IMG/VR virus record: IMGVR_UViG_2534682294_000013
Length of the DNA: 39,485 nucleotides
Source of the DNA: a virus
Lineage: Duplodnaviria > Heunggongvirae > Uroviricota > Caudoviricetes
Reading direction: 5' to 3' (one strand)
Shown in pieces: positions 4,139 through 39,485 of the stretch. Position 1 is the first letter of the stretch. Every line of letters starts with the position of its first letter. The notes under the pieces are model-generated. The model saw nothing but the letters and a program-made list of their open reading frames with translations. It did no database searches and was not told the origin of the DNA. A program made the translations under genes and the position numbers.

Positions 4139-5255
4139 CCAGACCACCCGTTATGATATCCGCCGCTTTCTCTGGCAGACTGTATAAATCTTGTGTATCA
4201 GCATAATGTCGCGCATTTTCCGCCCAGGCCTGGCGCAATGAAGATTGCGTTAACGCTTTGCGTAAAATCTCATTCAATGTTTCCTGGCGGAATGGCTCAG
4301 CAATAGCCTCGCCGCAATTGGCGTCGACAATATAATGCGCATAGCCACAAACGGCTGTTGTTAGTACCGGTAATCCTGCAGTAATCGCTTCCAGTAGCAC
4401 AATTCCCGCTGCTTCCTGGTAGGCAGGATGCAGTAATAAATCCGCCGCCGCCATTAATTCCGAGACATCGTTGCGCCCCGAGAAGAAGTGAACATTACTG
4501 CGCACGCCGCGTTTTTCTGCCAGCGCCTCAAATTTTCGCGGTTTATCCTGTCCAACAACATATAGCAATGTGTTGTGGCGCAGCGAATCCGGTAACGAAG
4601 CAAGTGCTTCAATGGAACGATCGACACCTTTACGCGTGAAGTCTGAACCGACCTGCAACAATAAATATTGTTGTTCGGTTATTCCATTCTTCTTACGGAA
4701 GATTTCACGGCTATTAGCTGGCTGCTGGCTATATTTACGATCAGGATAAATCCCCGGTGGTAGAATATGAAAACGCTCCGCTTCAGTCTGATAATGTTTC
4801 TGGAAATCGGCGATTTGCTTATCTGTCAGCATCAGCAGCTGTGTCGGCTTGCCCTGTTCGAAGGTTGCCCGCTCAAAGGCGGCATAATGGCGATAACGTG
4901 ACGTCAGGTGATAGAAAAAGCCTTTTTCCTGCGCGACTTTCTCGGCATAACAAACATCAGCGGCATAATAAACGTCCAGCCCCGGCATTTTGTTGAATCC
5001 AACGACTTTATCGACGGGATGTTCGCGTAAATGTTTTTGCACCCAGGCAAAATACTCCGCATTGCGCCCGTGATTGGTATGCGATTTAACCGGCACTTTG
5101 ATCAGTTCAAATACATCAGGGCATTCGCCTTCCCACGACTGGGTATAAACCCGAACATGATGACCTCGGGCGGCGACTGTCTGAGCAATACGCATAAAAT
5201 CGCGCTGCAAACCGCCAAAGGGAAAATATTTATATAAACAAAAAGCAACGATCAT
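4131..5255 (-). CDS. waaG: LPS core glucosyltransferase I (GT4)
   Basis: 374-aa ORF with the GT4 E-x7-E region [18 protein letters not shown]. It has an ATGA overlap with the waaQ stop. Confidence 0.95.
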
Positions 5256-6310
5256 AACGACGTACCTGTCGTGGAGGAGGGCAGTAATTTATCGACAGCA
5301 GCAATGACATCTGCCGCCGGAATAACCGAAAGATACATCTCATTTCGGTCACGCTGATCGCGCGTTGGCATTTCCCGGTAATCTCCCGCCCAGAATTGAA
5401 TCATGTTATTTGACCAAGGACGCCAGAAAATATGGTCTGTCGCACCAAACAGCGATATCAGCGGCGTATTAACTGCAGCGGCAATATGCGCCGGTGCGGA
5501 ATCAACGCCAATAAACAGCTGCGCATGATCGATTAACGCACCAAGTTCCGGGAAGGTCACCTTTCCAGCCAGCGCCGTTACTGGTGGCGTCTGGCATCCT
5601 TGCGCAATTTCATTGACGCAGGCCAGATCGTCTTTATCTGGGCCGGACGTCAGAACGACTTCATAACCACGAGCATGTAAGGCATCAATCACAGCGGAAA
5701 ACTTGGCGTTGTCCCAGCATTTGAAGATTTGCCGCGCCGTAGGTTGGATAACCACATAATTTTGTCCAACACCAGCGTGATCAAGTTCGCGACGCATACG
5801 TTTCCAGCTTGCAGGCGGGTAACTCATGGTTGTCTGCTTCACCAACGAATCAAGTCCCAATGGTGTCAGCACGGATAAGTTACTTTCCACCACATTTCCA
5901 CCCTGCAACGGCACCAAATGGGTGAAACTTTTACGCCAAAAAGCAGACTGCCGATGATGATAATCCTGGGAAATTTTCACACGGGCATTTAATAAGCGAA
6001 CCAGTATAGCAACCATCCATTGATCGGTAAGATTGACGATAAGGTCATACTTATTGGCACGTAATACCTTGATGAGATGAAAAAAGTTGGCAATTTTTTC
6101 TGAGGCTTTTGCTTTTTTATTTTTTATGCCGTAGAGCGCGTTAATCTCTGGATTTTCAGACAGGATCGGGATGGTGTCCTGATAAAGCAGCACATCGATT
6201 TTTGCGTCAGGGTAATTTTTTTTCAGCGAACTAATGACGGGAGTAGTTAATAACATATCCCCATGAAAACGCATCTTAATGAGCAAAATTCTTCGAAATG
6301 GCTTATCCAC
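5252..6310 (-). CDS. waaQ: LPS heptosyltransferase III (GT9)
   Basis: 352-aa ORF with a GTG start at 6310 and GT9 motifs RILLIKMRFHGD and GVDSAPAHIAAA. An alternative start is Met13 at 6274. Confidence 0.88.
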   Translation of the reverse strand: MDKPFRRILLIKMRFHGDMLLTTPVISSLKKNYPDAKIDVLLYQDTIPILSENPEINALYGIKNKKAKASEKIANFFHLIKVLRANKYDLIVNLTDQWMVAILVRLLNARVKISQDYHHRQSAFWRKSFTHLVPLQGGNVVESNLSVLTPLGLDSLVKQTTMSYPPASWKRMRRELDHAGVGQNYVVIQPTARQIFKCWDNAKFSAVIDALHARGYEVVLTSGPDKDDLACVNEIAQGCQTPPVTALAGKVTFPELGALIDHAQLFIGVDSAPAHIAAAVNTPLISLFGATDHIFWRPWSNNMIQFWAGDYREMPTRDQRDRNEMYLSVIPAADVIAAVDKLLPSSTTGTSL

Positions 6311-6359
6311 AAGTAACTCTTTTTGTTGAGATTATCCGATTAAGGTGAAGCAGAAAAAG

Positions 6360-6409
6360 CACGCTACCGCCCCAGGCTCAACAGCTACCTGAATACTGAT
6401 ACCGCACTG
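6360..6409 (-). promoter_or_regulatory. JUMPstart element containing the ops (RfaH recruitment) site
   Basis: The minus strand reads cagtgcggtatcagtattcaggtagctgttgagcctggggcggtagcgtg. The last 12 nt, GGCGGTAGCGTG (6371-6360), match the ops consensus GGCGGTAGnnTG. The element lies in the leader upstream of waaQ. Confidence 0.88.
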
Positions 6410-6722
6410 ATATTGACGCGCTAGTGTATCACTTCTTTCGCGGCAATCCGACCCGAATGATTTTTAAGCACATTGTTGATTTTCAATAAAGAAATCAATC
6501 AAATAAAATCATTAGCAACCATATTCTTTCACTGTTGCTCTGCGATTCCTTCCTGCACGTACAGCAGAAATCAATGAATCGCATAAAAATACAAAAAAAG
6601 TATAGATGTTCAGCAAGAATTGGCGGGTAAATTGCTATTTAAGTCAAAAACGGGAAAAGTAATGGTAAAGCCACAGCTAAATACATAGAATCCCCAGCAC
6701 ATCCATAAGTCAGCTATTTACT

Positions 6723-8487
<1,765 letters not shown>

Positions 8488-8494
8488 CGTTTAT

Positions 8495-8516
8495 GCCGGA
8501 TGGTATGCCATCCGGC
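8495..8516. terminator. Stem-loop between convergent coaD and mutM
   Basis: gccggatgg-tatg-ccatccggc forms a 9-bp perfect stem. There is no long T tract on either side. Confidence 0.45.
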
Positions 8517-8525
8517 GCGCATGAA

Positions 8526-9335
8526 TTACTTCTGGCACTGCCGACAATAAAACGTTGCCCGCTGCGCATGTTTAGTCGCCACAATCGGCGTACCGCACAC
8601 CCGACACGGCTCACCTTTTCGCCCGTAAACCTGCAATTCCTGAGCGAAATAGCCCGGTTTACCATCACTTTGCAGAAAATCTTTCAGCGTTGTACCACCC
8701 TGCTCAATCGAACGCAGCAACACCGCTTTAATCACCCGAGCTAACAATTCACACTCTGCCAGCGACAGTGATGACGCCAGCCGATCCGGATGGATCCCCG
8801 CCGCAAACAGTGATTCGCTGGCATAGATATTCCCTACCCCTACCACCAGCTTGTTATCCATCAGCCACGGTTTAATCGCCGTTTTTTTCTTCGCGCACTT
8901 CTGATGCAGATACTCACCATTGAAATCGTCGCTAAGCGGCTCCGGTCCAAGATGGGCCAGCACATTATGCCCTTCCAGCTCTTTGGTCCACAGCCAGGCA
9001 CCAAAGCGGCGCGGATCGGTGTAGCGCAGCACTTTGCCGTTGCTCATCACCAAATCCACATGGTCATGCTTTTCAGGGGGAAGTTCTTCTGGAAGGATGC
9101 GCAGGCTGCCAGACATCCCTAAATGAATGATAATCCAGCCCTCAGGCAGCTCCAGCAGCAGATATTTAGCCCGCCGCTGCACGCTAAGCACTGGTTGGTC
9201 GCTTAAACGGTAGATCTCTTCTGAAACCGGCCAGCGCAAGCGTCCGTTGCGCACCACTGCATGAAGAATGGTTGCACCAACGAGATGCGGTTCTATGCCG
9301 CGGCGGCTGGTTTCAACTTCGGGTAATTCAGGCAT
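8526..9335 (-). CDS. mutM: Formamidopyrimidine-DNA glycosylase
   Basis: 269 aa, starting [13 protein letters not shown] (catalytic Pro2). The C-terminus has the zinc finger CRVCGTPI...CRQCQ. Confidence 0.97.
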
Positions 9336-9386
9336 AGCATCTCCAGGAATGAACAGATGCAGTCAATATGGGGGCAAGCAGATAAC

Positions 9387-9414
9387 AAAAAACCCCGCCG
9401 GAGCGAGGTTTTTT
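9387..9414 (-). terminator. Rho-independent-type hairpin downstream of rpmG
   Basis: aaaaaa-ccccgc-cgga-gcgagg-tttttt. This is a GC stem with one mismatch, flanked by A and T runs, so it could act in both directions. Confidence 0.55.
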
Positions 9415-9432
9415 GTTACATCAAAGCGAGAA

Positions 9433-9603
<171 letters not shown>

Positions 9604-9620
9604 TTATTTCCTCTAAGTAC

Positions 9621-9878
<258 letters not shown>

Positions 9879-10073
9879 TTAGCTCGAGCTTCGTATGGGG
9901 TATTGGCGCCTCGTCAGGCTTTACAGCCCGGTCATCGCAGTTCTATGTGAACTCTCGATTGCCAGGCCCAAATGCCAAACCCGAGATTCTCAAAGGTGGC
10001 GTAGTATACGCTGACTCAGCGATGTGCTCAAGTCCCGAACAGACAAAGATCCCGAAGGATCGCGCATAGCGGG

Positions 10074-10748
10074 TTAAATCCAGCCGCGTTCGGCAAAAGA
10101 AACATACTCTCCACGCCCAATCACGATATGGTCGAGCACGCGTAAATCCATGAACTGACAACTCTTTATTATCCGTTCAGTAATGAGTTTATCCGCTTTA
10201 CTGGGTTCAGCACAACCCGAAGGGTGATTATGTGCAAGGATCAGCGCCGAGGCGTTTATTTTTATCGCTTCGCGGATAATTTCCCGAGGATGGACTTCAA
10301 CATGGTTTAGCGTGCCGGAAAAAAGACGGCTATGCGTTATAACCCGGTGTTGGGAGTCGAGAAAGATCACCATAAAGATCTCCCGCTCCTCACCCGTGAG
10401 CTGGCTTTGTAAAAATTCCCGCGTCATCTCCGGGCTGAGTAAAGGGCTTTCTTCACGCATCCGCACGTTGTAGTAACGTCGCGCCAGTTCAGCAATCCCC
10501 TTTAACTGGGCAAATTTCGCTACGCCAATTCCATGAACACCACTAAATTGTTCATATTCAGAGGTTAACAAGCCATAAAGAGAGCCGAAATTCTCCAGCA
10601 TCTCTTTTGCCAGGGTTAATACATCTTTACCGCGCGTTCCGGTACGCAGAAATAGCGCCAGCAGCTCGACATCAGTTAAGGCGCTAATACCAAACTTCAG
10701 CATTTTTTCGCGCGGCATCAACAGCTGTGCATTGTTTTTCACCTTCAC
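10074..10748 (-). CDS. yicR: RadC-like JAB/MPN domain protein
   Basis: Contains the JAB motif [10 protein letters not shown]. An alternative GTG start two codons in (10742) would give 222 aa. Confidence 0.9.
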
Positions 10749-10913
10749 CTCCTTTGTGGTGCTCGCATCCTGTCATAGCCGTTCCGTTAAATCGACGGCC
10801 AGTTTTCAATCCTGGAAAGCGCCTCGCAAAGTGAATCTCAGGTGAAGGCACGACAACAAAAGTATTGTGATAAAATCGCCAACTTCTGGTGTCACCCAAC
10901 AGGAAAAATCATC

Positions 10914-12134
10914 ATGAGCCTGGCCGGTAAAAAAATCGTTCTCGGCGTTAGCGGCGGTATTGCTGCCTATAAAACCCCTGAACTGGTGCGTCGTTTGCGC
11001 GATCGCGGGGCCGACGTCCGCGTAGCCATGACCGAAGCGGCAAAAGCCTTTATCACCCCACTTAGCTTGCAGGCGGTTTCTGGTTATCCCGTTTCCGACA
11101 GTTTGCTGGACCCGGCAGCCGAAGCCGCTATGGGCCATATTGAGCTGGGTAAATGGGCTGATTTAGTGATTCTCGCCCCTGCCACGGCAGATTTGATTGC
11201 CCGTGTTGCTGCCGGAATGGCGAATGACCTGGTATCGACGATTTGTCTGGCTACACCTGCGCCTGTAGCCGTGCTCCCCGCCATGAACCAGCAGATGTAC
11301 CGTGCCGCTGCCACGCAGCATAATTTAGAGGTGCTTGCTTCCCGTGGTTTGCTCATCTGGGGGCCAGACAGTGGCAGTCAGGCTTGTGGTGATATCGGTC
11401 CTGGGCGAATGCTCGATCCGTTAACCATTGTGGATATGGCGGTAGCGCATTTTTCGCCCGTCAACGACCTGAAACATCTGAACATTATGATTACCGCCGG
11501 CCCGACGCGTGAACCGCTCGATCCCGTGCGTTATATCTCTAATCACAGCTCCGGCAAGATGGGTTTTGCTATCGCCGCCGCCGCTGCCCGTCGTGGCGCG
11601 AACGTCACGCTGGTATCAGGTCCGGTTTCACTACCGACGCCACCGTTTGTTAAACGTGTTGATGTGATGACCGCGCTGGAAATGGAAGCCGCCGTGAATG
11701 CTTCTGTACAGCAGCAAAATATTTTTATCGGCTGCGCCGCCGTGGCGGATTATCGCGCAGCTACCGTGGCCCCAGAGAAAATCAAAAAGCAGGCCACGCA
11801 GGGTGATGAATTAACAATAAAAATGGTTAAAAACCCCGATATCGTCGCAGGCGTTGCCGCACTAAAAGACCATCGACCCTACGTCGTTGGATTTGCCGCC
11901 GAAACAAATAATGTGGAAGAATACGCCCGGCAAAAACGTATCCGTAAAAACCTTGATCTGATCTGCGCGAACGATGTTTCCCAGCCAACTCAAGGATTTA
12001 ACAGCGACAACAACGCATTACACCTTTTCTGGCAGGACGGAGATAAAGTCTTACCGCTTGAGCGCAAAGAGCTCCTTGGCCAATTATTACTCGACGAGAT
12101 CGTGACCCGTTATGATGAAAAAAATCGACGTTAA
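10914..12134 (+). CDS. coaBC: Bifunctional phosphopantothenoylcysteine decarboxylase / synthetase
   Basis: [20 protein letters not shown]... gives 406 aa from the ATG at 10914. The track ORF (10842) is a 24-codon upstream extension. Confidence 0.97.
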
Positions 12135-35092: not shown

Positions 35093-35187
35093 GGAAGATC
35101 GTCGTCTCCGGTGAGGCGGCTGGACTTCAAATCCAGTTGGGGCCGCCAGCGGTCCCGGGCAGGTTCGACTCCTGTGATCTTCCGCCA
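35093..35187 (+). tRNA. selC: tRNA-Sec (selenocysteine, anticodon UCA)
   Basis: 95 nt, GGAAGATCGTCGTCTCCGGTGAGGCGGCTGGACTTCAAATCCAGTTGGGGCCGCCAGCGGTCCCGGGCAGGTTCGACTCCTGTGATCTTCCGCCA. It has the long variable arm, the extended acceptor stem, the TCA anticodon and an encoded CCA. Confidence 0.98.
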
Positions 35188-35349
35188 AACCTCATCCAGC
35201 CAGTTCCGAGATACTCCATAAAATACTTTATATTCAATACGATGAATAATCAGCTTGTCCGTAATAGTCCGAGATCATCTCCCTGAATCCGCGAAAAATA
35301 TGTATAGTAATGTGTATAGATTTTTTATACGTAGTTTTCAGTTATACAC

Positions 35350-36537
35350 ATGGCTCTAACCGATATACAGATCAAACGTGCAAAACCACAAGACAAACCA
35401 TACACATTGAACGATGGACAAGGTCTGTCATTGCTTATCAATCCCGATGGCTCGAAAGGCTGGCGTTTCCGTTTCCGGTTTGCAGGGAAAGCGCGGTTAA
35501 TGTCATTTGGCAGCTACGATTTAGTAAGCCTCGCAGAAGCACGTGAGAAGCGTGATATCGCCCGTAAGCAGGTTGCTAATGGCATTGACCCGGTAGAGGA
35601 ACGCAAAGCTTTAAGACTCGCTCAAAAGCTATCAACAGAAAATTCTTTCGAAGCAATATGTCGAGAATGGTATACCAACAAAGCTGATCGCTGGACTGTA
35701 GCCTATCGAGAAGAAATCATTAGGACATTCGAGCAGGATGTCTTCCCGTTCATTGGTAAACGTCCTATCAGTGAAATCAAACCATTAGAACTGCTTGAAG
35801 TATTGCGACGAATAGAGAAACGAGGAGCACTAGAGAAGACCAGAAAAGTGCGCCAAAGATGCGGTGAGGTCTTTCGTTATGCAATCATAACTGGCCGAGC
35901 TGAATACAACCCAGCACCTGATTTAGCTATCGCTCTGGCCGTTCCTAAGCCAAAACACCACCCATTTTTATCTGTCGAAGAGTTGCCTTATTTTATTCGG
36001 GATTTGGAGGCATACTCCGGCAGCATAATCACCAAAAATGCAACTAAGATAGTTATGCTTACTGGTGTAAGAACGCAGGAGATGCGCTTTGCTACGTGGG
36101 AAGAGGTTGATTTGGATAAGGAGGTTTGGGAGATACCAGCGGAACGTATGAAAATGCGTAGGCCTCACATTGTTCCTTTATCTACTCAGGTAGTTGACCT
36201 TTTTAAACAGCTCAAACCAATTACCGGTCATTACCCTTACATCTTTATTGGCAGGAACAACCGTAGCAAACCGATCTCGAAAGAAAGTGTTTCACAAGTG
36301 ATTGAGTTACTTGGTTACAAAGGCCGTGCTACAGGTCATGGATTTAGACATACAATGTCAACAATATTACATGAACAAGGGTTTGACAGTGCCTGGATTG
36401 AGATGCAATTAGCACATGTTGATAAAAATTCTATTCGTGGAACATACAATCACGCACAATATTTAGAAAATAGACGCGCAATGCTTCAGTGGTATAGTAA
36501 CTTCATATTTAATAAAATTAGTGAAGACACACTTTGA
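35350..36537 (+). CDS. int: P4-family tyrosine integrase
   Basis: 395 aa with the N-terminal arm-binding domain MALTDIQIKRAKPQDKPYTLNDGQGLSLLINPDGSKGWRFRF. The catalytic residues are in TGVRTQEMR, HGFRHT and IRGTYNH. It is adjacent to a tRNA gene. Confidence 0.93.
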   Translation: MALTDIQIKRAKPQDKPYTLNDGQGLSLLINPDGSKGWRFRFRFAGKARLMSFGSYDLVSLAEAREKRDIARKQVANGIDPVEERKALRLAQKLSTENSFEAICREWYTNKADRWTVAYREEIIRTFEQDVFPFIGKRPISEIKPLELLEVLRRIEKRGALEKTRKVRQRCGEVFRYAIITGRAEYNPAPDLAIALAVPKPKHHPFLSVEELPYFIRDLEAYSGSIITKNATKIVMLTGVRTQEMRFATWEEVDLDKEVWEIPAERMKMRRPHIVPLSTQVVDLFKQLKPITGHYPYIFIGRNNRSKPISKESVSQVIELLGYKGRATGHGFRHTMSTILHEQGFDSAWIEMQLAHVDKNSIRGTYNHAQYLENRRAMLQWYSNFIFNKISEDTL

Positions 36538-36546
36538 TTTATAAAT

Positions 36547-36576
36547 AAAAAGAGCCTCTTCCGAAGCTCTTTTTTA
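36547..36576. terminator. Bidirectional hairpin terminator shared by int and the convergent deaminase/small-ORF unit
   Basis: aaaaagagc-(10 nt loop)-gctcttttt with an A run on one side and a T run on the other. It lies 10 nt after the int stop and 6 nt after the small-ORF stop. Confidence 0.6.
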
Positions 36577-36581
36577 ATTGT

Positions 36582-36755
36582 TTATTTATTGTTCTTCAAT
36601 CTTTTATCTTCTTGTAAAACAAGATTATTTAACACTTTAATTGACTTGGAGGATAAATCATCTCCTCCTAACATATTTTTTTTCCATTCCGGCCATTCAT
36701 TAATTATTTTTTTAGTTGCAACCACATGTTTAATAAAACCATTTTCGATAGACAT
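36582..36755 (-). CDS. Small hypothetical protein (57 aa), translationally coupled to the deaminase gene
   Basis: Not in the ORF track because it is under 60 aa. The ATG at 36755 is 1 nt after the deaminase TAA, with AGGAG 6 nt upstream. Translation: MSIENGFIKHVVATKKIINEWPEWKKNMLGGDDLSSKSIKVLNNLVLQEDKRLKNNK. The stop is at 36584-36582, followed by a terminator hairpin. Confidence 0.55.
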   Translation of the reverse strand: MSIENGFIKHVVATKKIINEWPEWKKNMLGGDDLSSKSIKVLNNLVLQEDKRLKNNK

Positions 36756-36756
36756 G

Positions 36757-38277
36757 TTAAACTCCTATGATCTTTGCGAATAAGTTAACAGAAATCTGCT
36801 CTCTTTCCAAGTAAGAAATAGGCAACAGTGATATTCTTAATGACGAATTAGACTCAGTCCATTTAACAACATTTCCCGACTTATCTTTTCTCTTAATTTT
36901 ATTACCACTTCCATTAACAATGGAAAATAGATTAAAATAGACTCGTGGACCTATTCCAATAAAAGGTTCGAAAAGCACCTTTCCTTGGTTTTTTTCATCA
37001 TTAGTTATTGATTCTGAATGAAATTCATAAGCCTTACTTTTTGGATATGGCTCTATGTAAACCACCCTCTTTATTCCCGAAGCTATAATATGCTTAGCGC
37101 AGTTGTGGCATGGGAAAGTAGTGCAATATATATAAGCATCTTGAGTACTAATATTTGTTCTAGCGCATGCTAAAATAGCTTCCATTTCAGCATGCACCAC
37201 ACGACCATATTCCGTAATATCTTGAATCAGGCTGTTATTGAGGATTCTCTCAAAATTATCACGAGATTTTCTAGGTATTTGATTGAGAATATCATGTATA
37301 ATTTCTCTTTTTTGTTTAGCATTCGAATCAAAACCTCTTACATAGTCCCTTCCTTCCGGATAGTCTTCATAAATTTCGTTCTCTGCATTAAAATATGGCC
37401 AGTATAAACCACCACCAGACTTAGGAACATCATTAGCACCAGTTGACATAATAGCGTAATTTTTTGCTAATACAGCTCCAACTTGTCTTGATAAATCAGC
37501 AGATCTCAAAGCTGAAGAAAAGGCCATATACATTGCATATTCATCAAATGTTGGCGTAATAAAAGGATTACCGAATAGCAAATCAAAAACTCTTTTTATA
37601 TCATTATTAAGTTTATCATCTCGGCCATCTTGGTTTAAAAAGAAATCAGCCAAATGAAATGTATCTCTGGTATGCTGCCCATGCCCAGACTCTTCATCTT
37701 CATCTCTAGCAATCAATAACGCTGCTTTATCTTCTGGAATTCCTTTATTACGAATTAAATTATCTAACCTGCGACTCTCATCAGAAAAAATACCAAACAA
37801 TAAAAATCCCGAGCCATATACTTCTCTTAATTTATACACCTCTTCTGGATGCTTTATTGAATTTATAACATATGCAATTCCTTTTTTATTTATTTGTAAA
37901 CGTGCATGCTTTGCCCTAATCTCATTAATTTTAGCTATTGCTCCAAGAGCCAATATATAATTACATTCACTATCCTCCCTCAGTTTATTTCCCTTAGTCA
38001 TTAAGCCATCAATTCTTTGGTAATTATCTGTATAATCTCCATTACCTAAGAGCTCAGCTATCACATCAGATGAAATCCGAACTTCAGAACATTCAAATTT
38101 ATATAAGGATAATCTATCTCTTATTTTTTTTGTAATTGCTTCTAGGTCTGTGCCAACGGAAGAAACTAACCCTATTACCATTTCTGCTAAAGGTCCTGTG
38201 GATTGCTTATCCTCCCCTGAGTTTTTTAAAAGCTGAGGTGCTTCTTTATTCAATTCTGTTATCTTTGTAATTTTCAT
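36757..38277 (-). CDS. Nucleotide-kinase-like / deoxycytidylate (dCMP/dCTP)-type deaminase fusion protein; candidate anti-phage nucleotide-depletion effector
   Basis: 506-aa ORF. The C-terminal half carries the zinc deaminase signature RSADLSRQVGAVL ... VVHAEMEAI (H362, E364; nt 37194-37177) ... FPCHNCAKHIIASGIKRVVY (C390, C393). The N-terminal half has a degenerate P-loop GLVSSVGTD (no Lys) and a small-NMP-kinase-like stretch INSIKHPEEVYKLREVYGSGFLLFGIFSDESRRLDNLIRNKG. The gene is AT-rich and sits in the satellite cargo slot. Confidence 0.8.
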   Translation of the reverse strand: MKITKITELNKEAPQLLKNSGEDKQSTGPLAEMVIGLVSSVGTDLEAITKKIRDRLSLYKFECSEVRISSDVIAELLGNGDYTDNYQRIDGLMTKGNKLREDSECNYILALGAIAKINEIRAKHARLQINKKGIAYVINSIKHPEEVYKLREVYGSGFLLFGIFSDESRRLDNLIRNKGIPEDKAALLIARDEDEESGHGQHTRDTFHLADFFLNQDGRDDKLNNDIKRVFDLLFGNPFITPTFDEYAMYMAFSSALRSADLSRQVGAVLAKNYAIMSTGANDVPKSGGGLYWPYFNAENEIYEDYPEGRDYVRGFDSNAKQKREIIHDILNQIPRKSRDNFERILNNSLIQDITEYGRVVHAEMEAILACARTNISTQDAYIYCTTFPCHNCAKHIIASGIKRVVYIEPYPKSKAYEFHSESITNDEKNQGKVLFEPFIGIGPRVYFNLFSIVNGSGNKIKRKDKSGNVVKWTESNSSLRISLLPISYLEREQISVNLFAKIIGV

Positions 38278-38475
38278 ATGAAGTCATTCATCCAGTGAAG
38301 ATACAAAACATTTTTATAAATAATTCTTAGCATGTTTTCTATGTTTTCATTAAATTTTTTGAATTACCTCATGTTTTACATTTAAGCAACACAAGGTAAA
38401 CAACTGTTATATAAGAAAATTGAAAGCATAATGAATGATGTAGTTGGCTGTCACGTCTTCCCACTTCGTAGGGCG

Positions 38476-38490
38476 GATTCAGGCTGAATC
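38476..38490. repeat. 15-bp perfect palindrome in the cos-proximal non-coding region
   Basis: gattcag-g-ctgaatc has 7-bp arms around a single central base. That is too tight for a hairpin and is more consistent with a dimeric protein-binding site. Confidence 0.4.
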
Positions 38491-38734
38491 ATAGATAGTT
38501 TTAGACCTCTTATAGGACCGAATGTATAAGATGAAGGTATTAGAGGAGCTGAGCGCCTTCAAAACCGCCACTCAGTATCTAAACCGGGCAATACTTTCTC
38601 GCCCCTAACTTAGCCACTCATGGGCTCATCACGCCATCAAACATTACTGCACGATCACTAATACTCGTTCGAAACGGCACAGTACTACGGTACACCAAGT
38701 CCCGCAAAAATAAATACATTACCGCTGGCGCGCA

Positions 38735-38753
38735 GTGCTTTCCCCGCCTCGCC
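38735..38753 (-). other. P2/P4-type cos cohesive-end sequence (19 nt)
   Basis: The minus strand reads GGCGAGGCGGGGAAAGCAC. This is identical to the 19-nt cohesive end I recall for P2 and P4. Its orientation (psu -> cos -> cargo -> int) matches the P4 map. Confidence 0.8.
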
Positions 38754-38853
38754 CGCCCGCTTTGCGGGGCGGTTTTAATGCAGTTTCACTGACACGCTCA
38801 GGCCGCGCCGGGAATGGCGCGGTCTGCAGAAAATGAGGCAGGAAAACGCATGC

Positions 38854-38887
38854 AAAGCCATGCACCTTATCGATGCATGGCTTTTTT
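38854..38887. terminator. Strong hairpin between psu and cos
   Basis: aaagccatgca-(9 nt loop)-tgcatggcttt forms an 11-bp perfect stem. The T6 tract is on the + strand. On the psu (minus) strand only uuugcaugcguuuu follows. It lies 31 nt downstream of the psu stop. Confidence 0.55.
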
Positions 38888-38917
38888 CAGTAAAAACGGG
38901 CGGATTTTCGGGGAGTT

Positions 38918-39485
38918 TTACACAGACTGATGTGATGCCAGTTGCGCACTTTTACGCGAAAAAATCATGTTCTGCGCAGGGGTGAATTTTTCACGGCTGT
39001 CATCCACCGAAGCCGCGTCAGGCCTGAATCCGATGGTCGTTAAAATGTCGCTATCCTGTGCGGAATAATTAATTTTTTCCCCCTTCGCAAGCCAGGACAG
39101 GAGGGCTTCACGCAGGGCATCTGTGGCACGCTGTATGGCACAGTTTCGGGCAATGGCCGTCAGCTCACTGTAACCCATCAGCTCCGGTGCCAGTGCGGCC
39201 GCCAGTACTGTGCCGTGCTGCTGCATAAAATCATTCAGCCGGTCGCGGATGCTGATGTGCTGAACGGCTTCATGCGAACGAATATAACGACCGGCGGCCT
39301 GATTCACCTGCCATTTTCTGACTTCGATAATATTGCGTAATTCGTCCAGGCGGCTGACGTTTCTGCCTTCTCCTGACAGAAGCCGCAGATATTCCTGTTC
39401 GGCCGCTGCCAGCTCATTTTTGCGTTGCAGCCATGCTGCTTTGTTATTCTGACAGGTGTCAAAGGCCTGCTGTAAGGCTGTGCTT
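38918..39485 (-). CDS. psu: Polarity suppression / capsid decoration protein Psu of P4-like satellites (5' end outside window)
   Basis: The frame is open from the window edge: STALQQAFDTCQNNKAAWLQRKNELAAAEQEYLRLLSGEGRNVSRLDELRNIIEVRKWQVNQAAGRYIRSHEAVQHISIRDRLNDFMQQHG...SRKSAQLASHQSV. This matches my recollection of the 190-aa P4 Psu, so the start codon would lie about 5 nt beyond the window. The track shows only the part from an internal GTG. Confidence 0.85.
   Translation of the reverse strand, partial: STALQQAFDTCQNNKAAWLQRKNELAAAEQEYLRLLSGEGRNVSRLDELRNIIEVRKWQVNQAAGRYIRSHEAVQHISIRDRLNDFMQQHGTVLAAALAPELMGYSELTAIARNCAIQRATDALREALLSWLAKGEKINYSAQDSDILTTIGFRPDAASVDDSREKFTPAQNMIFSRKSAQLASHQSV

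Follow-up and report, generated by a model that had tools for sequence, protein, structure and literature searches.

The right end of a 39,485-nt stretch of DNA (IMG/VR virus record IMGVR_UViG_2534682294_000013; the whole stretch is referred to as the window) reaches into an element which, when followed into the chromosome of Escherichia coli O157:H7 strain FRIK944, is very probably an intact 11.07-kb P4-type satellite prophage, inserted into the 3' end of the selenocysteine tRNA gene selC and carrying a dCTP deaminase as cargo. This assignment is based on sequence comparison and draws on FRIK944 (NZ_CP016625.1) because its chromosome is 100% identical to window positions 15093-39485, i.e. over at least 24.4 kb. 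The window contains the left third of the element, and the rest, from delta to the attachment site attR, lies beyond position 39485. The genes of that part were read in FRIK944 as the 100%-identical source genome, not in the window itself, and are given in coordinates of the FRIK944 locus L001 (window position = L001 position + 15092). The same element was found at 100% identity in seven complete O157:H7 genomes and at 99.6-99.8% identity in five other E. coli. As judged from the alignments described below, it is a P4 backbone with two exchanged modules, namely int together with attP and the cargo located next to cos.

The host gene of the insertion is fully preserved. The single tRNA gene detected by ARAGORN in the window is that of tRNA-Sec (anticodon TCA, 95 nt, 35093-35187, plus strand), which scores 83.8 bits with the Rfam model RF01852 (gathering score 47) and shows no difference (100% identity) from the selC sequence in K-12-type strains. 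Its last 24 nt constitute the attL core TTCGACTCCTGTGATCTTCCGCCA (35164-35187, plus strand), identified by pattern search and alignment. The last 21 nt of selC (35167-35187) recur exactly at attR beyond the window, where the corresponding repeat TTTGACTCCTGTGATCTTCCGCCA (L001 31141-31164) shares 23 of 24 bases with the selC end, including the 21 contiguous exact ones. A pattern search for the core in L001 gave two hits compared to zero expected, and the distance of 11,069 bp between attL and attR corresponds to the genome size of P4. Moreover, ordinary O157 genomes provide the empty site, as they join selC straight to the sequence which in FRIK944 follows attR, with the match starting at the 21-bp core. 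The intact tRNA-Sec, the attR core, the empty site and the occurrence of the element in independent chromosomal backgrounds are all in line with an integration into the 3' end of selC, the attB site, by which the tRNA gene was regenerated.

The int gene begins 162 nt past the end of tRNA-Sec and codes for a 395-aa tyrosine integrase of the P4 family (35350-36537, plus strand), which is composed of the Pfam domains Arm-DNA-bind_3, Phage_int_M and Phage_integrase and is assigned to the selC-specific type by its identity to other selC integrases. An intact 95-nt tRNA-Sec with an adjoining 395-aa P4-type integrase had already been noticed in a preliminary description made from the letters of the window alone, and both are borne out here. 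The alignment of Int with P4 Int and other selC-specific integrases, for which that description had called, yielded 38% identity to P4 Int, 95% to the integrase of the element 042p9 of E. coli 042 and 68% to the selC integrase on the side of the enterocyte effacement locus (LEE; see below). A large protein search with Int returned only generic names, and the family is widespread in Enterobacterales.

The relationship to P4 becomes apparent 2.2 kb past int. There, the 19-nt cohesive end of P4, GGCGAGGCGGGGAAAGCAC, is present as an exact copy on the minus strand (38735-38753, equivalent to P4 positions 1-19). It is the only match in the window, 100 shuffles gave none with up to two mismatches, and it is flanked by 147 nt that differ from the right end of P4 at three positions. 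Approximately 90 bp around cos (38706-38795, minus strand) are in addition 86-88% identical to the cos-proximal DNA of the helper phage P2 (megablast; query positions 3614-3703 of L001:20001-31200), as expected for a packaging signal shared with the helper. The neighbouring psu gene for polarity suppression and capsid decoration (38918-39485, minus strand) runs off the window, which comprises 188 of its 190 codons plus the stop codon; the first two codons are located past the edge, and the complete gene for 190 aa is found at L001 23826-24398. In the part encoded in the window 185 of 188 residues are identical to residues 3-190 of P4 Psu, and matches to Pfam PF07455 (3.9e-88) and to the structure of PDB entry 3RX6 (2.9e-118) were obtained. 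A frameshift or truncation of psu was considered and rejected: the listed 129-aa open reading frame (ORF; 38918-39307) with its internal GTG start is an artefact of the window edge and not a disruption, as the frame stays open and P4 Psu-like throughout. The preliminary description had named the exact 19-mer on the minus strand and a Psu-like product in a frame open to the edge, and both hold in real alignments with P4.

Beyond the window the element follows P4 gene by gene. Megablast aligned it with P4 in one co-linear piece of 7.3 kb with 97.5% nucleotide identity, which covers P4 positions 4291-11624 and spans crr, alpha, epsilon, the cI region, the replication origin (ori), sid, delta, psu and the right cohesive end; on the far side, P4 homology stops exactly at the outer edge of crr. 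In FRIK944, psu is followed by delta (166 aa), sid (244 aa), the gene of the AlpA/ORF88-type regulator (vis, 88 aa), the ash/cI region, epsilon (95 aa), ORF151, ORF106 and alpha (777 aa). All these genes have the lengths known from P4, none in the element carries a pseudogene flag, and the proteins compared are 98-99% identical to those of P4 (Delta 162/166, Sid 239/244, Alpha 770/776). The antisense immunity RNA, its a1b1 target and isrK are recognised where P4 would lead one to expect them, within L001 26579-26864, by the Rfam models C4 (74.2 bits), c4-a1b1 (50.2 bits) and isrK (74.9 bits), each above its gathering score. Two crr-type direct repeats of ca. 120-130 bp with TGTTCACC-type iterons (L001 30703-30822 and 30883-31015) are located between alpha and attR. 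Thus, delta, sid, the cI RNA, epsilon, alpha and attR, which the preliminary description had advised to look for past position 39485, are without exception present in FRIK944, and the order and orientation that it had proposed, with int reading outward from the tRNA and psu towards cos, agree with the co-linearity to P4. SatelliteFinder names seven core components of P4 elements, Int, Psu, Delta, Sid, AlpA, the Ash/cI region and Alpha (PMC13586616). All seven were found, five of them outside the window in the source genome, together with an integrase at the end beside att, a P2/P4-type cos, immunity by antisense RNA and direct att repeats whose distance of 11,069 bp lies within the ca. 10-12 kb typical of such satellites.

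The completeness of the gene set also bears on the alternative that the DNA is a decayed and immobile P4-derived remnant, a cryptic island keeping only int, cos and psu. Exactly these three are visible in the window alone, many selC islands are fixed remnants, and a second att core is missing from the far end of the adjoining LEE. Two further details weigh against an intact satellite as well. Firstly, P4 left-end homology extends only ca. 7 nt past the cos 19-mer and then ends completely, so that the DNA left of cos is unlike that of P4, and cos function could suffer if P4-specific sequence is needed there. Secondly, the 24-nt repeat at attR contains one mismatch (TTT versus TTC), which falls outside the exactly repeated 21 nt. 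According to the published description of the hotspot, P4-like elements in general have variable DNA directly next to cos (PMC9122126). Against a remnant stand the full length of all seven core components at 98-99% identity to P4, the presence of the immunity RNA, the intact cores of both att sites, the lack of pseudogene flags, and the finding of a 99.6-100% identical element in unrelated chromosomal backgrounds. We therefore regard decay to an immobile remnant as very improbable.

The position of the element next to LEE suggests another interpretation, in which it belongs to that island as the P4-family cryptic prophage flanking LEE at selC in O157:H7. LEE does have a P4-family integrase next to it at selC, and in FRIK944, where the satellite is situated between selC and LEE, the latter follows within 8 kb. 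The intervening sequence begins past attR with a second intact selC-type integrase gene (393 aa, L001 31360-32541, product 68% identical to Int), after which come the insertion sequence (IS) ISEc31, a truncated YeeU antitoxin gene with the CbtA toxin, ISEc8 and the LEE type III secretion island from espF onward (L001 31141-44393). However, the LEE-side integrase is thereby a separate gene located outside the att-bounded element, and ordinary O157 genomes, in which the flank and the post-attR sequence are present and the satellite is absent, have this integrase directly at selC. In LEE-negative strains the satellite stands alone. An assignment to LEE, with the satellite as its integrase-bearing left end, was rejected on these grounds and is even less probable than a remnant. 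A third type of explanation, that a satellite of the phage-inducible chromosomal island (PICI) type, an integrative mobilisable element or a full temperate phage has merely borrowed psu and cos, is scarcely credible in view of an unbroken 7.3-kb match to P4 at 97.5% nucleotide identity, the size of 11.07 kb and the lack of capsid, tail, terminase or conjugation genes between the att sites, even if hundreds of phage integrases are 46-49% identical to Int and P4-family integrases are common in islands and phages.

Returning to the intact P4-type satellite, its place in FRIK944 can be rationalized from the ordinary O157 genomes. Because these carry the second integrase gene directly after selC, the satellite must have entered between selC and a LEE that was already in place, forming a tandem array, which is seen in only seven complete O157:H7 genomes. 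LEE itself seems not to gain mobility from this tandem position, since no third att core was found in the 44 kb downstream when up to three mismatches were allowed; at this locus att sites bracket the satellite but not LEE. The far end of LEE contains solely a fragment of a gene for a major facilitator superfamily (MFS) transporter between LEE and yicL, which, judged by its position, is possibly a remnant of setC. A urinary isolate that lacks LEE carries this satellite, with an Int of the same protein accession, on its own between selC and setC. The presence of the same satellite in a LEE-negative background argues for independent site-specific integrations, from which we infer recent mobility.

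Comparison with P4 (NC_001609 / X51522) delimits the two exchanged modules. From cos to crr the two elements share 97.5% nucleotide identity, and they also have the same cohesive end, gene order, gene lengths and size. P4 Int, in contrast, consists of 439 aa compared to 395 aa here and acts on its own att core instead of the selC 3' end, and the P4 cargo is gop-beta-cII compared to the dCTP deaminase and a 57-aa ORF here. P4 homology ends where crr ends and, in the other direction, ca. 7 bp past the cos 19-mer, so that the int/attP block differs as a whole. The block is shared with other selC satellites, as reflected in the 95% identity to the 042p9 integrase. The preliminary description had proposed an integrase retargeted to selC; the selC site stands, but with only 38% identity to P4 Int the term retargeting is better replaced by a swap of the entire int/attP module. 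The G+C content follows the same borders, with 34% in the cargo block (36538-38734), 43% in int, 55% in the P4 core and 51% in the chromosomal flank. This compositional mosaic of cargo, int and backbone fits a repeated exchange of modules.

The cargo between int and cos is dominated by an ORF for 506 aa (36757-38277, minus strand), which had been passed over in the preliminary description. Its product is predicted to be a single-gene anti-phage dCTP deaminase, as PADLOC reported a dCTPase match (1.2e-168), the NCBIfam equivalog NF041025 scored 470.7 bits at a cut-off of 400, and the deaminase domain dCMP_cyt_deam_1 (PF00383) was found with Pfam. The zinc motifs of the dCMP deaminase type (H-A-E and P-C-x-x-C) are kept as HAE at residue 362 and PCHNC at residue 389, and solved structures of dCMP deaminases match residues 355-420, that is, the catalytic core only. 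Anti-phage dCTP deaminases are reported to block phage DNA replication by depleting dCTP upon infection.

One nucleotide after the stop codon of the deaminase gene starts the 57-aa ORF (36582-36755, minus strand; WP_000021256.1), taken from the ORF list and annotated as hypothetical, which gave no hits in Pfam, NCBIfam, PHROGs or PADLOC. A gene is called at its position in six of the eight contigs shown with this exact deaminase; the same satellite integrase adjoins in all eight, and psu is present wherever the contig reaches that side. The 57-aa ORF may act together with the deaminase gene, or it may be spurious. Between the deaminase start and cos follows a non-coding stretch (38278-38734), for which alignment and megablast indicated no homology to the P4 left arm. 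It belongs to the variable hotspot. The position between psu and int directly beside cos was described in 2022 as a defence hotspot of P4-like satellites (PMC9122126). The low-G+C variable cassette with an anti-phage system next to cos found here resembles the hotspot of Rousset et al. 2022, and its architecture differs in nothing from that description. The main text of the paper makes no mention of a dCTP deaminase (PMC9122126); such a deaminase has been reported in an Enterobacter P4-like satellite (PMC13612085).

In analogy to P4 and phiR73, a first scenario for the life cycle of the satellite can be outlined. Its P4-family Int, assisted by AlpA, would recombine attP with the 21-24 nt at the 3' end of selC and would also excise the element there. 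Integration would regenerate an intact tRNA gene at attL and leave behind a second core at attR. Replication would be driven by the Alpha primase-helicase together with ori and crr, and immunity would be conferred by an RNA of the C4/CI type. Epsilon, Delta, Sid and Psu would derepress and transactivate a P2-type helper and re-size its capsid, and the helper terminase would package the 11-kb genome from cos, if the functions known from P4 apply. During an infection, the dCTP deaminase would deplete the dCTP pool. Of the earlier proposal of a P2-dependent satellite of the selC type, the satellite identity is substantiated by the P4 gene set, the att cores and cos; the dependence on a P2-type helper is inferred from the near-identity to P4 and the published behaviour of phiR73. 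A more far-reaching idea would be that in the seven O157:H7 genomes the satellite operates as an active, helper-mobilisable defence module which determines what phages are able to grow, among them Shiga toxin (Stx)-converting or therapeutic ones, with the 57-aa ORF product as, for instance, a regulator or trigger-sensing partner of the deaminase. We mention this possibility only tentatively and consider it rather unlikely.

Surveys have noted that P4-like satellites use several tRNA sites (PMC10121019) and occupy a small set of chromosomal spots (PMC13586616). The retronphage phiR73 (Inouye et al. 1991; Sun et al. 1991; summarised in a review on retrons, PMC6868368) is a P4-like element located in the gene for the selenocysteine tRNA, from which infection with P2 yields infectious particles that lysogenise new hosts and re-integrate at this site (PMC6868368, PMC6174562). 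Compared on the basis of this published description, phiR73 shares with the present element the P4-like character, the selC site and a defence-type cargo, which in phiR73 is the retron Ec73 (Eco3) and not a dCTP deaminase. An 11,030-bp element at tRNA selC is reported in the 2010 paper on E. coli 042, which also names 042p9 (ROD61) as a P4-like satellite (PMC2808357). The two are taken to be the same, as 042p9 is the last of nine prophage regions; a P4-like element was confirmed at this position in the record. It is a close relative of the satellite in FRIK944, with the same selC site, the same 21-bp core at both ends, an Int of 95% identity and a backbone, including the arm from crr to attR, of 93-97% nucleotide identity outside the cargo. 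It differs in its cargo, in the absence of an adjoining LEE and in a short delta for 81 aa (L003 5843-6088; L003 being the E. coli 042 locus) compared to the 166-aa double-domain Delta of P4. The LEE-flanking integrase, finally, has in common the selC 3' core and the integrase family (68% identity), but the island of which it is part is fixed, contains IS elements and lacks a far-side att core, whereas a complete satellite is present here.

Among 5,426 complete E. coli genomes, at least 447 carry a P4-type element at selC. They were counted with a query that joined 10 kb of DNA flanking selC to selC itself, int and the P4 core and that had to be covered to at least 80%; because the flank alone covers only 48%, these genomes contain such an element. 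Together with the publications on phiR73 and 042p9, this number contradicts the impression conveyed by the preliminary description that selC is an unusual site. Satellites of the P4 type at selC have been known since 1991 and are common, and the present element is annotated in RefSeq. As a textbook-type P4 satellite whose alternative site, defence gene and cargo hotspot were all known before, it has little weight as a discovery. It does offer a clean case of P4 evolution, in which int/attP and the cos-proximal cargo were swapped on a nearly invariant backbone. In addition, a subset of O157:H7 has gained a defence-carrying satellite in tandem with LEE, which could matter for phage typing or phage therapy of these strains.

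Two minor observations concern the related loci. In 042p9 the hotspot is occupied by genes for an AAA ATPase and a DUF4435 protein (L003 2681-5052), presumably a pair resembling the PARIS defence system. Strains without LEE contain a short piece of a rhuM pseudogene between attR and setC (L003 12333-12494; L004 21044-21172), which is probably left over from an older island at selC.

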